From an uncultured virus (IMG/VR IMGVR_UViG_3300021197_001448) (lineage: Duplodnaviria; Heunggongvirae; Uroviricota; Caudoviricetes), in the IMG/VR virus record IMGVR_UViG_3300021197_001448: a DNA stretch of 64,000 nucleotides; one strand, written 5' to 3'. This document shows positions 31,128 to 59,044 of the stretch, one piece after another. Numbering within the stretch: position 1 is the first letter of the stretch; every line of letters begins with the position of its first letter. The notes under the pieces are model-generated. The model did no database searches and was not told the DNA's origin. It saw only the letters and a list, made by a program, of their open reading frames with translations. The translations under genes and the position numbers were made by a program.

Positions 31128-31459
31128 GCAATAAGAAACAAGAAAAAGAACACGCAATTAGTTTTAATCGCACATGGGATGCGATAAAGAAAGATGATGA
31201 TGAAGAACGCTTTAGAGAAGGAGATCCTTACTACGGTCCTGCTGAACCCAAACGCTTGTTGGATGAAAACATGGTATTTGAATGCAAACACATATTTCTA
31301 TCCACATTAAGACCACTTCTCGAAAACCAAGATCAGAACAGTTATGTTCGCAATGTAGTATCAGGTGATATGGGCATCACACCAACTGATGAAGAAATTG
31401 AGGCAGGTCGCCATGAAGCCATAGAACACATTGACAGATGGTTGGAGTCGATACTATGA
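31124..31459 (+). CDS. Small protein with FxxTW tag
   Basis: FNRTWDAIKK; TTG start with SD GAGGTGG. Confidence 0.7.
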   Translation: MSNKKQEKEHAISFNRTWDAIKKDDDEERFREGDPYYGPAEPKRLLDENMVFECKHIFLSTLRPLLENQDQNSYVRNVVSGDMGITPTDEEIEAGRHEAIEHIDRWLESIL

Positions 31460-31890
31460 GCGAAGCATTTCACAGAACATGGTATTTACTAAAAAGAGAA
31501 CTCGATAATGAAAAATCCATAAAAGAATATCAACGTAATCCAATGGGTGCATTGGACTTGCCTCTTTCTGGATCGAGAGGTGAAGATCATGAGGGGAATC
31601 CCGAAGTTAGACCTCCAGTAACCCGTCTTACTGAGATGGGCAGAGCAAAGCAAAGGCAAAAAGGCGAAGAATACCTAAATCCTATTCGAGTAAAGCACAC
31701 AAAAGATGGTCAAGTTTTAGGGCAACGGCCAAAAGCAATGCAAACTACATCTGATGACATAAGGGCTTTGAGAAGAATTAGAGAAAATGAATCTGCTAAC
31801 AGAATCAATCGGGATCACCCTTCCCAAAAAGATGAAAAGTTTCGACAAAAATTTTCCAATAAATATGGACGATCTGACATTAACAGGTGA
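31456..31890 (+). CDS. Small basic protein with FxxTW tag
   Basis: MSEAFHRTWYLLKR. Confidence 0.7.
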   Translation: MSEAFHRTWYLLKRELDNEKSIKEYQRNPMGALDLPLSGSRGEDHEGNPEVRPPVTRLTEMGRAKQRQKGEEYLNPIRVKHTKDGQVLGQRPKAMQTTSDDIRALRRIRENESANRINRDHPSQKDEKFRQKFSNKYGRSDINR

Positions 31891-31895
31891 TTTTA

Positions 31896-33035
31896 GTGCC
31901 AAGCACCAACTTAGCAGAAGGTCATGAAAAGACCTCATCAACGACTTATCAAAACGATGGGCTACGTGATTCAGACGTTTTGACCAGTCCCTCATTGACT
32001 AATAATGTAGAACGTGGTCTAAGCAACGGGGTTTTGCCTGTTACTTTGAATCGGTATGATGAATCTGATCGAAACAATCCAGTTAGTGGTAACTGCTGTG
32101 TTAGACCAAACGGAACGATTGGAAGCACCAAAGAACTCTATGTCGATGCAGGAGTAGTTCAACTGGATGGTATGTTTTACAATGTTGGCTCGGCTTCTGT
32201 TTTAGATATTTCATTGACTACTAACTATCATTCGGGTTATCACGGCGCAGCAATCCCAAACGGGTCAAACCCCTCAGATGAGGCAATTTTGCTCGTTTAC
32301 ATCGATCCTCGAAAACCAAATAATGTAGGTTTTGTTTTTGGATCATATGTTGATACTTCGACTGGTGAATACCCACAATCACCTTCAAACCACCTTGTAT
32401 TGCAGAATACAGTCCTTGCTTCTGTGAGAGTAGGTAAAGGGGCATCTCACCCAGTTATCCTCGCCATAGAGGACAAGAGAGTGTTTATTCGGCCTGGTCC
32501 TGTTGCACTATCGGCAATCGAACATAGTGATGGAACCGAAGAAAATCTCAGAAACGATTTTGTTGCGGGATTCAATGCAGGCGATTTGCCAATCACCGAT
32601 CTCGGAGTATTGTATGCGCGTAATCCAAGCGGTTTTACAACTCACGCTCAAGGAACAGGGCAAACACATCTGTTTTTCCAGTCCGATCAGGGAGTGGGAA
32701 TTACAACAGGCGGGGGTGGATCTTACCAAATAACTCCTGTTCACAGAACCTCAAAAACACCACAGATTCCATATACTGGACCTGTGGTTTTGGCTTTTGG
32801 AACACCCGCACCAGGAGGGTTGAGATATAAGCCATTGTTAAGTGAAGAGGATGGCGCAACTCCTTTAGTTACTGTTGATGTTTACGATGGTGCTAATTTG
32901 CACTTAGGGACATTAGTTAATGTGCATGGTTTTGCGCTTAGTTCTGGTAATTTAACACTTAATGCGCCAGGGGCGGTGGGACTTCCTGCTGCCGCTACTG
33001 CCGTTGTCACCTATGTTCACGCTCAACACATTTAA
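31896..33035 (+). CDS. Putative virion structural protein (tail-tip or fibre associated)
   Basis: Gly/Thr/Val-rich beta composition; LYVDAGVVQLDG and IEDKRVF resemble baseplate/fibre N-termini; SD AGGTGA. Confidence 0.55.
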   Translation: MPSTNLAEGHEKTSSTTYQNDGLRDSDVLTSPSLTNNVERGLSNGVLPVTLNRYDESDRNNPVSGNCCVRPNGTIGSTKELYVDAGVVQLDGMFYNVGSASVLDISLTTNYHSGYHGAAIPNGSNPSDEAILLVYIDPRKPNNVGFVFGSYVDTSTGEYPQSPSNHLVLQNTVLASVRVGKGASHPVILAIEDKRVFIRPGPVALSAIEHSDGTEENLRNDFVAGFNAGDLPITDLGVLYARNPSGFTTHAQGTGQTHLFFQSDQGVGITTGGGGSYQITPVHRTSKTPQIPYTGPVVLAFGTPAPGGLRYKPLLSEEDGATPLVTVDVYDGANLHLGTLVNVHGFALSSGNLTLNAPGAVGLPAAATAVVTYVHAQHI

Positions 33036-33064
33036 TACCAATAACTGTGCGCCCTGATTTGTTT

Positions 33065-56975: not shown

Positions 56976-57237
56976 CTTGCATCACCTTTAACATTCGTTG
57001 AAAATCCTTTTCTACTCTCATTTTATGAGGACTTGATTCTGATAATATAGCCACATTTTTTTCAATATCCTCATCACTCATTTCAATGCCATCTGCCTCA
57101 GCCATTGCCATTTCACGTTCTTTGTTTTGTTCTCGATAATCAGTCTCTCCAGTAATAGCAGCCTCAGTTGATTTTGCTATGTCTTTGAAAGATTTTTCAA
57201 GTTCTTTAAAATACATCTGCATAAAGATAAATAGCAT
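56968..57237 (-). CDS. Hypothetical protein (neck region)
   Basis: ORF in a tight operon. Confidence 0.6.
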   Translation of the reverse strand: MLFIFMQMYFKELEKSFKDIAKSTEAAITGETDYREQNKEREMAMAEADGIEMSDEDIEKNVAILSESSPHKMRVEKDFQRMLKVMQDG

Positions 57238-58821
57238 TCAACCACCCATTCCCGCAACTATAATTGACTCTTGATATGGAATCAACATACGCTTTACTTC
57301 TTCATCTAATTTTTGAATTTTAGCGTTGAGATCGATGTTACTCGTCCCTTCTGGAAACAAAACCGTGTAATCATCAGTAAGGTAAATATCCATGCAAACC
57401 AGTTTAATGCAAGCCTCTTTGATAACCTTATCCAAATAACGTTCACCATATATGTAGGACACTTTCAGAGAATGATTTTCATAGAAAGGGTATTGATTAT
57501 TGAACATGATTGCTCCATTATCTTCCATTGACCACCAATCTTTTTGACGTGCTTCATCAATAACATCGGTTTTCAAACGTAATTGTTTGATCTCAATGCC
57601 TTCTGCTAAATTCGCAACAAAGTTAGTAGTCAAGGTATCATCCGTAACTGTGAATACATTTCCATTGCGGGAACATCGAGCAATGTATGTGTTGCCCCCT
57701 GTCGTGTAAAATACTAAACTCTCACGCAAGGTAAAATCAGTTGCAGTAGATAAAGTGAAGTTAGAACCTGCTACATTTGTGATTGTGCTTGATGGATTTA
57801 GCATCAGATCAAAGGCGAAGGCATCAGGGTTAGAGGCGGCTATGGTTGTATCTTGTCCTTCTTCTGTTGATCGCATAGATGAGATCATAATAACGCCATC
57901 TCCATCATCACTGTTTGCGGTAGCCAAAAATTCATCATCCACATTTAATTGTATGCTATTTTCTTGCAGTGTTCCAATGGGAACATCCCCTCTACTGGTT
58001 GCACTATCTTTATTGATTAAATTAGAAATGTTTTGTGCAGTTGTTTTATCGCCAAAATCTCCATCCCATGTGGTTGCAGTTTTACCACGTTCTAAAGTAG
58101 CCGTATGAGCGACACCAGGACATAAGAAAATCTTATCATTTGCACCAACAGAACTTGATTTTACTGTTAGTTTTATGATAGATGAACCCAACTCTCTATA
58201 TTTATCTCCTTGCCAAACGCCTAAACGAAGAATACGTTGTATCGATCTGTTTCTCAAATAAACAGCACCGACATAATCAGTATAGTATCTTCTTCGATAT
58301 GGTTTGAACGTAGTAAAGTTTTGATATTCGTCTGAAACTAAATGAGGTCGCCATGCCATTCGACATACTGTATCAATGTAATCCTGTTTTTCACGAATAA
58401 GCGTTTCAACCTGTGATTTAGTTAAACCACGTTCTGTGCTATTGGTTAAAGCCGAATTGATTTGGATCTGTGCGCTATTGGCGGTTGTGAATGCTTCTGC
58501 ACCTTTCTTTGTTACAATGACATTTATGTTGCCTCCACCTGCACTTTCAACATCGTTCACAGTATAGGTCTTGCCAAGAGAATCTGCATCATCATAAACG
58601 GTAATCGAGGTTCCTGCCTCAATTTTCCAACGACGATAATTTGCACCTGTTATTGGCAACTTTAAATTTGTTGAAACGATGCTACTATTTCCTGATAACG
58701 CTACGGGATCGGGAAGTGGTAATTGAAGAAAGTTTGCCACATCATCAACAGAACAATACACCAAATCATCGGGGTATAGCGGTGAACTTGGCCTGTGACC
58801 TGGATTGAAGATTTGTGGCAA
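57238..58821 (-). CDS. Head-tail adaptor-like protein with insertions
   Basis: YCSVDDV, LI....DYIDTVC..AW, LKVSYIYG..IKEACIKLV. Confidence 0.7.
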   Translation of the reverse strand: MPQIFNPGHRPSSPLYPDDLVYCSVDDVANFLQLPLPDPVALSGNSSIVSTNLKLPITGANYRRWKIEAGTSITVYDDADSLGKTYTVNDVESAGGGNINVIVTKKGAEAFTTANSAQIQINSALTNSTERGLTKSQVETLIREKQDYIDTVCRMAWRPHLVSDEYQNFTTFKPYRRRYYTDYVGAVYLRNRSIQRILRLGVWQGDKYRELGSSIIKLTVKSSSVGANDKIFLCPGVAHTATLERGKTATTWDGDFGDKTTAQNISNLINKDSATSRGDVPIGTLQENSIQLNVDDEFLATANSDDGDGVIMISSMRSTEEGQDTTIAASNPDAFAFDLMLNPSSTITNVAGSNFTLSTATDFTLRESLVFYTTGGNTYIARCSRNGNVFTVTDDTLTTNFVANLAEGIEIKQLRLKTDVIDEARQKDWWSMEDNGAIMFNNQYPFYENHSLKVSYIYGERYLDKVIKEACIKLVCMDIYLTDDYTVLFPEGTSNIDLNAKIQKLDEEVKRMLIPYQESIIVAGMGG

Positions 58822-58834
58822 AACCGATTCCCCC

Positions 58835-59044
58835 TTATCGGCGGCGCATCGACGGTACTGCCCGTACTCTCATATGTTTAAGTGCGTTCTTTCGAGTTCT
58901 GCAAAACGATGCAGGTACATCTGGTGTTGGGCAAGCCATAGGATCACCATGACATACGGGACAATCACCGAATTTGATAATATCTTCCCATGACTTCTGA
59001 AATGCTTTTTCTTTGGGCTTCGGTGTATGAACTTCTTCACTCAT
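58835..59044 (-). CDS. Small Cys-containing protein with FxxSW tag
   Basis: FQKSWEDIIKF; CPVC..C..C. Confidence 0.65.
   Translation of the reverse strand: MSEEVHTPKPKEKAFQKSWEDIIKFGDCPVCHGDPMACPTPDVPASFCRTRKNALKHMRVRAVPSMRRR

Follow-up and report, generated by a model that had tools for sequence, protein, structure and literature searches.

A portable peptide tag on unrelated proteins of a magrovirus-like virus lineage and its possible role in head loading

Introduction

The internal proteins (Ips) of T-even phages are unrelated to one another, have only an N-terminal packaging leader in common, are encoded in a genomic hotspot and are injected against host restriction, as set out in two accounts (PMC12373910, PMC3012670). 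The cargo is described there as soluble and often basic or enzymatic, with the head protease probably removing the leader (PMC12373910, PMC3012670), and at least ten Ips are reported across the T-even phages (PMC12373910). In phage P1, the first 30 N-terminal residues of DarB suffice for capsid loading and also direct a foreign protein to the head, and the Dar proteins have no consensus in common (PMC9024508). The present study concerns 64,000 nucleotides (nt) of DNA from an uncultured virus, IMG/VR record IMGVR_UViG_3300021197_001448 (hereafter the window, meaning the whole stretch that was analyzed), on which the original prediction had noted a short peptide of the type F-x-x-[AST]-W-x-x-[ILMV]-K, here termed the tag, in about eight otherwise unrelated small late proteins. 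The tag proves to be a portable peptide-level element attached to many unrelated soluble proteins of this virus lineage, a conclusion in which we have high confidence. That it acts as a label resembling the capsid-targeting sequence (CTS) of T4, by which proteins would be loaded into the head and then clipped, is a tentative reading by analogy that we hold with slightly less than even confidence.

Results

Tag copies in the window

A six-frame scan of the window with the regular expression (regex) F..[AST]W..[ILMV] produced 11 matches, eight of which are inside plausible open reading frames (ORFs). These eight strong copies, at 31163 and 31468 on the plus strand and at 33543, 34169, 34543, 34812, 35018 and 59002 on the minus strand, are those named in the original prediction, and seven of them fall between 31.1 and 35.0 kb. 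The remaining three matches (28686, 31016 and 44465, all on the minus strand) belong to short or antisense frames. Chance accounts for about 0.5 matches per proteome: 2000 within-ORF residue shuffles of 79 ORFs (21,007 amino acids) gave a mean of 0.49 matches and a maximum of four, in a greedily chosen gene set that held just five of the eight tagged ORFs because antisense ORFs were picked at three places. In the reversed window the regex matched twice compared to ten times in the forward sequence, and a position-specific scoring matrix (PSSM) at a threshold of ≥16 matched zero times compared to seven. The matrix was trained on the tags themselves and is informative only for the false-positive rate; with it, the seven full-length copies of the window scored 16.8–31.6. 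A weaker ninth copy, FDNAYDQML (30321, plus strand), had also been put forward. It is not counted here because its PSSM score is −2.6 and its DNA is unconserved in the otherwise 97–99% identical relative L001.

The tag in related viruses

Forty-two related IMG/VR loci, 42–98% identical in the marker, were recruited with a 382-amino acid anchor protein that is encoded between two groups of tagged genes. The anchor itself had no match in the PDB, and its matches in the ESM Atlas were all under 0.9. The window and the 42 loci together gave 183 regex matches, of which 57 were removed because they were on a list, compiled by hand, of strings that recur in antisense or out of frame; the 126 that were kept correspond to 97 distinct tagged ORFs. 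Their consensus is M-[TS]-x-F-[DE]-x-A-W-[DE]-[LI]-[LMV]-K, or in short form F-x-x-A-W-x-L-L-K, typically placed 3–6 residues past the start methionine. As the original prediction had it, the tag is mostly near a terminus: 64 of the 97 ORFs carry it within eight residues of the start methionine and three at the C-terminus, with 19 internal and 11 ambiguous cases. N-terminal tags often follow a GGAG-like ribosome-binding site that is itself read through in frame. The F, A, W and hydrophobic residues are spaced at i, i+3, i+4 and i+7 and therefore would line one face of a short amphipathic helix.

Codons differ among the copies, as had been noted from the window alone, with synonymous usage at the conserved positions that is roughly genome-like. 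Across 95 distinct copies, phenylalanine is encoded by TTT in 69 and TTC in 26, alanine by GCA in 45, GCT in 20 and GCG in 12, and lysine by AAA in 44 and AAG in 25. As codons at the conserved residues vary about as they do in the genome, selection acts on the peptide.

Five whole relatives (G001–G005) contained 22, 21, 8, 4 and 5 matches, respectively, at a PSSM score of ≥12 and 22, 19, 7, 4 and 1 at ≥16, with no match at the latter threshold in any reversed control; the most distant group among them uses F-x-x-G-W. The largest set comprises 22 tagged ORFs in a single genome of ~95 kb. Thus, the motif is present in related viruses and, with the mean of 0.49 given above, is not as frequent in shuffled proteomes. 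The tag is a lineage-wide system that is larger than the original prediction had estimated, and it is found on large enzymes, e.g., DNA methyltransferases, as well as on small proteins. Of the wider scan proposed there, the relatives G001–G005 gave the matches above, and the first 100 kb of the halovirus HVTV-1 has no such tag (two regex matches compared to six in the reversed control). The exact string MTAFDTAW was found in 49 IMG/VR stretches. It occurs just five times in 596 Gb of prokaryote genomes, in each case in unrelated bacteria, which by a rough estimate is about the chance level. As the exact consensus in cells is confined to these five occurrences, no host protein appears to use the same label. 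No description of such a motif was found for archaeal viruses, including the main texts of the magrovirus papers PMC5434244 and PMC11706807, the supplementary tables of which, possibly listing these families, were outside the search.

Some large proteins contain two copies of the tag ~170–310 residues apart (G001 18509–20038; G002 88816–92271), and each copy in these proteins precedes K-[AM]-P or K-I. In a 268-amino acid protein of G001, the second copy is a shorter one at the C-terminal end.

Proteins that carry the tag

The sequences that follow the tag in the 97 distinct ORFs fell into 36 BLASTP clusters, 21 of which are singletons, and pairwise similarity between tagged proteins of G001 mostly is confined to the first 12–15 residues. 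Moreover, the tag can be present or missing ahead of the same protein. The 386-amino acid protein of G001 (gene at 83717) begins MMKVNTLNVLETYAGAGG and is untagged, and its orthologues in L008 and L011 have the tag ahead of the same sequence. The N-terminal half of DUF5872 is a common module of viral contigs, with 556 confirmed stretches; among 78 retrieved and readable loci in IMG/VR, four are tagged and 74 are untagged, several of the latter beginning right at the module. These data bear out the proposal of a portable, peptide-level tag on unrelated proteins. They also bear on the explanation that the tagged genes form one old paralogous family, with the N-terminal helix belonging to a fold that all members have in common and the remainder diverged beyond recognition. 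The genes are in tandem and many are small, and a few pairs are alike beyond the tag, e.g., the YHGT pair of G001 (71 aligned residues, E 3e-11). However, the cargo ranges from 50 to 1150 amino acids in size and includes clearly different folds, among them D12 and C5 methyltransferases, GP88, the DUF5872 halves and HExxH proteins. With orthologues that exist with and without the tag, common descent of this kind is extremely improbable.

None of the 97 tagged ORFs has a membrane-like segment. The cargo is as varied as was originally described, with basic, acidic and Zn-finger proteins all represented: the isoelectric point (pI) is >8 in 48 and <6 in 34 of the 94 cargos with enough sequence, and four or more cysteines are present in 26 of 80 small cargos. 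The most deeply conserved tagged gene, which has the tag in G002, G004 and G005, encodes a D12 N6-adenine methyltransferase, and a C5 methyltransferase has a looser version of the tag. Other cargo includes GP88-family proteins, a weak ParB/DGQHR-like protein, both DUF5872 halves, a 66-amino acid polybasic module and Zn ribbons, and two tagged proteins have an HExxH region in common. A cargo family that continues K-[AM]-P-Y-H-G-T gave weak profile matches in the PDB, seven of seven to RNA 2'-phosphotransferase (Tpt1; best E 0.02), and is regarded as weakly Tpt1/ART-like; structure prediction of this family, with a predicted local distance difference test (pLDDT) value of 48 from a six-row alignment, was too poor for use. 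Most of the cargo is unnamed by Pfam, PHROGs and NCBIfam.

Much of this cargo is related to DNA, including the N6 and C5 methyltransferases, the ParB/DGQHR-like protein, the Zn ribbons and the polybasic modules, which would suit a docking helix for a hub other than the capsid (the thermosome, a DNA-bound platform or a host protein) that gathers DNA-modifying and DNA-binding accessory proteins in the infected cell. The i, i+3, i+4, i+7 amphipathic pattern suits any groove-binding peptide, and a docking motif is compatible with internal and C-terminal copies. The virus also encodes a group II chaperonin, which is a candidate partner of the tag. On the other side, neither PCNA nor a DNA polymerase was identified with Pfam among the 74 proteins of G001 that were scanned, and the label does not appear to be used by any host protein. 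Taken with the points from gene placement and from the terminal motif that are described below, a non-capsid hub is a rather unlikely explanation.

A PCNA-binding (PIP-box) peptide was considered separately and rejected, as no clamp was identified among the same 74 proteins and the tag consensus is unlike that of the PIP-box, Q-x-x-[ILM]-x-x-[FY]-[FY].

Tagged genes of the window

Two tagged genes of the window are on the plus strand. The first (31115..31459) encodes a 114-amino acid acidic protein with the tag FNRTWDAIKK at residue 17 (nt 31163–31192; PSSM 24.6), which the orthologues in L001 and L002 retain (cluster 5). The second (31438..31890) encodes a protein of ~144–150 amino acids in cluster 4 with the tag from nt 31468 (PSSM 23.1) and a likely start ATG at 31456, giving MSEAFHRTWYLLKR.

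The minus strand harbors the other six. The gene at 33310..34128 specifies a 272-amino acid protein (Pfam DUF5872, E 1.2e-11) that comprises the C-terminal half of DUF5872 ending in GGKPTVVK, an acidic helical domain, and the tag FEATWDSIRK (F at nt 33543) with the 66-amino acid polybasic module. The tag and polybasic part form a standalone gene of ~81 codons with an N-terminal tag in L013 and L016–L019, and the protein of the window therefore is interpreted as a three-module fusion. Next to it, 34140..34343 encodes a 67-amino acid Cys-rich protein with a C-terminal tag, FNTAWEQIF-stop (F at nt 34169); its homologues in L001, L003 and L015 run on beyond the tag into a further domain. The 71-amino acid protein of 34340..34555 consists of MGETFEIAWELMKS, the linker SDEKGDN and the basic module of the DUF5872 N-terminal half (Pfam DUF5872 positions 1–48; phrog_27331), and has the highest score (PSSM 31.6). 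The next two genes are an 85-amino acid acidic protein, MMTETFDTAWEMVKM (34570..34827; tag F at 34812), and a 67-amino acid Zn-finger-like protein, MMTFEKAWKTMKS (34824..35027; tag F at 35018), and both cassettes are missing from L001. The last gene, 58835..59044, is located between the head and tail genes and encodes a 69-amino acid protein, MSEEVHTPKPKEKAFQKSWEDIIKF followed by a Cys4 motif. Its tag at 59002 is the weakest of the eight (PSSM 16.8), and the counterpart at the equivalent place in G002 reads FEASWELMKFGDCP.

Among the relatives, the module that comes next after the DUF5872 C-terminal half (window 33310–34128 and relatives) is of at least six different kinds, including an acidic domain, an HExxH domain, DUF6321, the tag with the polybasic module, and two large domains. 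The variation amounts to domain shuffling at one fixed joint.

The string FDNAYDQML that is not a tag copy belongs to a 285-amino acid protein (30270..31127, plus strand) with a C-terminal DUF6321 domain (Pfam, E 1.1e-15), and it begins at nt 30321 in a part of the window, 30264–30759, that is unconserved in L001. DUF6321 (30870–31127, plus strand) is common to 143 phage records, mostly cyanophages and pelagiphages. Therefore, the same small basic module is present in an archaeal virus and in bacterial phages of the same waters.

Gene placement and cassette turnover

In G001, 12 tagged genes are at 18.5–28.4 kb (array 1) and five at 80.6–83.7 kb. Array 1 is followed by two methyltransferase genes, the terminase and portal genes, a gene for a 1148-amino acid protein, and the protease, major capsid protein (MCP), tail and giant protein genes, so that the two arrays flank the terminase–portal–protease–MCP–tail block on the same strand. 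A non-capsid hub leaves this flanking of the virion module unexplained, whereas the position of array 1, possibly that of early genes, would accord with it. Two further tagged genes of G001 are on the other strand, like those at 31163 and 31468 in the window. Array 1 also includes an untagged HMGL-like gene of the pyruvate carboxyltransferase type (21202–22071, E 1.4e-25).

Five tagged genes of the window are directly behind the gene for a 2598-amino acid tail protein on the minus strand, with 4-nt overlaps or gaps of 1–14 nt, and probably are made together with the tail genes. The first tagged array of this virus would be expected beyond 64 kb. The description of the tagged proteins as late is thus upheld for the five copies packed behind the tail-fibre genes and not for the two on the opposite strand, which are at the end of the block of replication genes.

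The window and L001 are 97–99% identical in the flanks and differ by whole tagged cassettes. L001 is without the two tagged cassettes at window 34550–35019 (versus L001 9315–9367), which are bounded by tag-coding repeats, and it has a cassette of its own (456 nt) between the gene for a 113-amino acid protein and the giant gene. L002 is without window 33882–35026. The breakpoints are placed in tag DNA because one tag-coding stretch of L001 aligns to two tags of the window, and the array 1 copies of G001 are similar at the DNA level too. These two observations would be expected if the tag-coding DNA were a recombination site for cassette swaps between co-infecting viruses and the peptide had no function. 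However, synonymous codons are genome-like and the alanine and lysine are strongly conserved (phenylalanine and tryptophan being invariant by the choice of the set), the tag persists between groups in which the anchor protein is only 42–47% identical, and tags also occur inside and at the end of proteins. A functionless peptide is, accordingly, very improbable.

The hydrophobic-hydrophobic-lysine motif and the head protease

The tag continues as W-x-hydrophobic-hydrophobic-Lys in 64 of 94 cases, and another group reads W-D-S-I-x-K. Similar sites are present in the protein encoded by 62268..63626 (minus strand), which combines a prohead protease of the S78 family at residues 29–183 (Pfam PF04586; PHROG head maturation protease) with a scaffold-like C-terminal half. 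In six sequences of this protein the sites FLLK/S, TILK/M, HVIK/S and NVIK/S are conserved, compared to ~0.7 hydrophobic-hydrophobic-Lys sites expected in 452 amino acids, and across 28 sequences there is no variation at K22, L177-K178-M179, V312-I313-K314 or K334. The tail of the scaffold is a conserved DGWRAAEALAxRALRGE in the window and G001–G005. The MCP, of the HK97-like SU10 type (61071..62255, minus strand), has DLLK/AD at residues 37–42; D37, L38, L39, K40 and D42 are invariant in 21 sequences, and K-A-D is retained in HVTV-1 despite an overall identity of 30%. In HK97, the founder of the S78 family, the capsid protein is cut at K103/S104 (PMC10275583).

Because the motif had been defined post hoc, from the tag and the scaffold, it was tested on other proteins. 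The seven proteins encoded between the terminase and protease genes in G001–G005 contain 18, 18, 16, 10 and 11 sites compared to 5.3, 4.5, 4.6, 4.3 and 3.8 in shuffled sequences; the observed counts were reached by 0, 0, 0, 4 and 0 of 500 shuffles, respectively. In contrast, the tail genes in the 13 kb that follow the MCP gene were at expectation (1, 5, 5, 5 and 6 versus 4.6, 4.6, 5.3, 5.0 and 3.7). The motif is thus enriched 2.3- to 4-fold in head-module proteins, and several sites are conserved in position in a 411-amino acid protein of this module that is 34–37% identical between groups. An enrichment of the terminal motif only in head-module proteins is left unexplained by a non-capsid hub.

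The same observations bear on the idea that the tag is a cleavage or turnover signal for a viral or host protease and has no role in packaging. The motif at the tag end in 64 of 94 copies and in the protease-scaffold protein would fit such a signal, as would xVK/SDEKGDN, which multi-module proteins retain at inner joints, including variants in which an extra domain separates the tag from the DUF5872 N-terminal module. However, the strongest conservation is in F-x-x-A-W upstream of the lysine, which a bare cleavage site would not need, and prohead proteases of the S78 family are active inside the procapsid. A signal for cleavage alone is improbable.

Complex prediction with alignments for the MCP, the protease-scaffold and the 71-amino acid tagged protein gave a score of 0.00, below the mark, in runs that did not include controls and that count neither for nor against binding, and the predicted structure of the MCP (pLDDT 30, 21 rows) was too poor for use.

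The head module encodes large, unnamed proteins of 411, 363 and 1148 amino acids between terminase and protease (G001 44018–52678, L045), and these are rich in hydrophobic-hydrophobic-Lys. A 5'-open ORF at window 63669–63998, directly upstream of the protease gene, occupies the place of the 1148-amino acid gene of G001; in HVTV-1 the gene at that place encodes 1313 amino acids and is annotated as "zeta toxin."

Other features of the window and its virus

The window is, judging by its genes, part of the genome of a magrovirus-like tailed virus of archaea. Its capsid protein had 11 matches in an annotated phage collection, all in archaeal viruses. The best was to haloarchaeal HCTV-1/HVTV-1 at 30% identity, and HVTV-1 is the closest cultured relative by MCP. 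The same capsid relationship to haloviruses is described for magroviruses of marine group II archaea (PMC5434244).

The virion module occupies the minus strand between 64 and 35 kb and also includes a tape-measure-like gene and genes for three giant proteins (800, 1686 and 2598 amino acids). The giant genes are consecutive at 35367–50616 (minus strand) and close the tail module; their matches were confined to weak laminin-G/concanavalin-like and weak YQBQ-like Pfam hits and one PHROG virion-protein match. A SAP DNA-binding domain (E 5.7e-12), unusual among tail genes, is present in a 112-amino acid protein (53975–54313, minus strand). Between 1 and 30 kb, the plus strand encodes a UvrD-like helicase, a group II chaperonin of the thermosome type, a PAPS reductase, a PD-(D/E)XK nuclease and an ERCC4 nuclease. 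The chaperonin is full-length (Cpn60_TCP1, E 1e-127) at 10037–11644 (plus strand), with a counterpart at 6313–7938 (minus strand) in G001. Because a run of 100 N is present at 25575–25674, within the ORF region 24589–25704/25532–26776, gene calls around it are unreliable.

Discussion

If the tag loads proteins into the head, the amphipathic helix would dock in a groove of one common partner, and that partner would be part of the assembling head, i.e., the scaffold, the capsid protein or the portal. The tag may in this way load a fast-changing set of cargo into the procapsid: polybasic DNA-binding modules, Zn ribbons, DNA methyltransferases, and ART-like and HExxH enzymes. The S78 head protease would then cut past the hydrophobic-hydrophobic-Lys at the tag end, and the freed cargo would remain beside the packaged DNA and might accompany it into the host. 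Head loading is made plausible by the arrays that flank the virion module, the head-enriched terminal motif and the predicted S78 protease. The cargo also resembles known packaged proteins in being soluble, with half of it at pI >8 and a conserved methyltransferase.

Several observations weigh against loading and clipping. The residue that follows the tag lysine is varied (S in 15, A in 13, G in 9, D in 7, and K, E and N in 5 each). The terminal motif is short as well as post hoc in definition, and the five genomes in which it was counted are related rather than independent. Genes of the replication strand also show a mild excess of the motif, 21 versus 14.8 in G001 and 23 versus 13.4 in the window. 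The scaffold itself does not carry the tag, with best PSSM scores of −1.4 to −6.5 in the window and G001–G005 (−6.5 in the window). GGKPT[MV]VK was considered as a cleavage junction and rejected: numerous other viral contigs have it at the end of the DUF5872 C-terminal half, K being replaced by S, N or R in some of them, and because it is intrinsic to that half it provides no evidence for cleavage. Two copies of the window and their G001 counterparts are on the strand of the replication genes, and array 1 of G001, at the start of a long rightward unit beside the methyltransferase genes, could consist of early host-takeover genes. The 19 internal and three C-terminal tags among the 97 are unlike the strictly N-terminal leader of T4, and ~20 cargo proteins per genome is many for the head of a ~95-kb virus.

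More broadly, the tag may define a combinatorial cargo system in which one address peptide, carried by up to one ORF in five or six, directs head loading of DNA methyltransferases, ART-like and HExxH enzymes and stackable modules that bind DNA, the cargo is freed by the S78 protease at hydrophobic-hydrophobic-Lys, every virion delivers a fast-evolving set of proteins with its DNA, and the DNA of the tag serves as the exchange joint of the cassettes. We consider this composite picture possible at clearly less than even confidence.

In the surface ocean, viruses of the marine group II archaea (Poseidoniales) belong to the most abundant viruses of archaea; to our knowledge, none has been cultured, and for most of their genes no role is known. 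One label on ~15–20% of ORFs would sort much of this viral "dark matter" into a single functional class, namely proteins with the same destination. If that destination is the head, this would be, within the literature searched, the first description of capsid targeting in an archaeal virus, by a system much larger than that of T4, and would suggest co-injection of proteins as a major route of counter-defence in archaea. The tag and shell together might also provide a handle for loading foreign proteins into an HK97-type particle.

Among known systems, encapsulins load enzymes with short cargo peptides that dock them to the inner face of an HK97-fold shell. The likeness to the tag is that of a short peptide predicted to address cargo to such a shell; the encapsulin peptides usually are C-terminal, and that system involves neither a protease step nor DNA. 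DarB of P1 acts on DNA, and the most conserved tagged cargo here is likewise a DNA-acting protein, a DNA methyltransferase. Unlike the Dar proteins, one consensus is used across dozens of proteins. The likeness to the CTS of T4, as in IPI–III and Alt, is greater in the short leader that is the sole common part of unrelated proteins, in fast-changing genes and in soluble cargo, and it extends to hypervariability, as the window, L001 and L002 differ by whole tagged cassettes. The differences are that the head protease here is of the S78/HK97 type, that of T4 belonging to a family of its own that is distinct from S78, that up to ~22 tagged ORFs are present per genome, that some tags are internal or C-terminal, and that the host is an archaeon; moreover, loading and cleavage are predicted from sequence in the present case. 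Thus, the tag system is like those of the T-even phages and P1 on the features compared and is not a member of either by descent, as the protease family, the domain of the host and the positions of the tag all differ.

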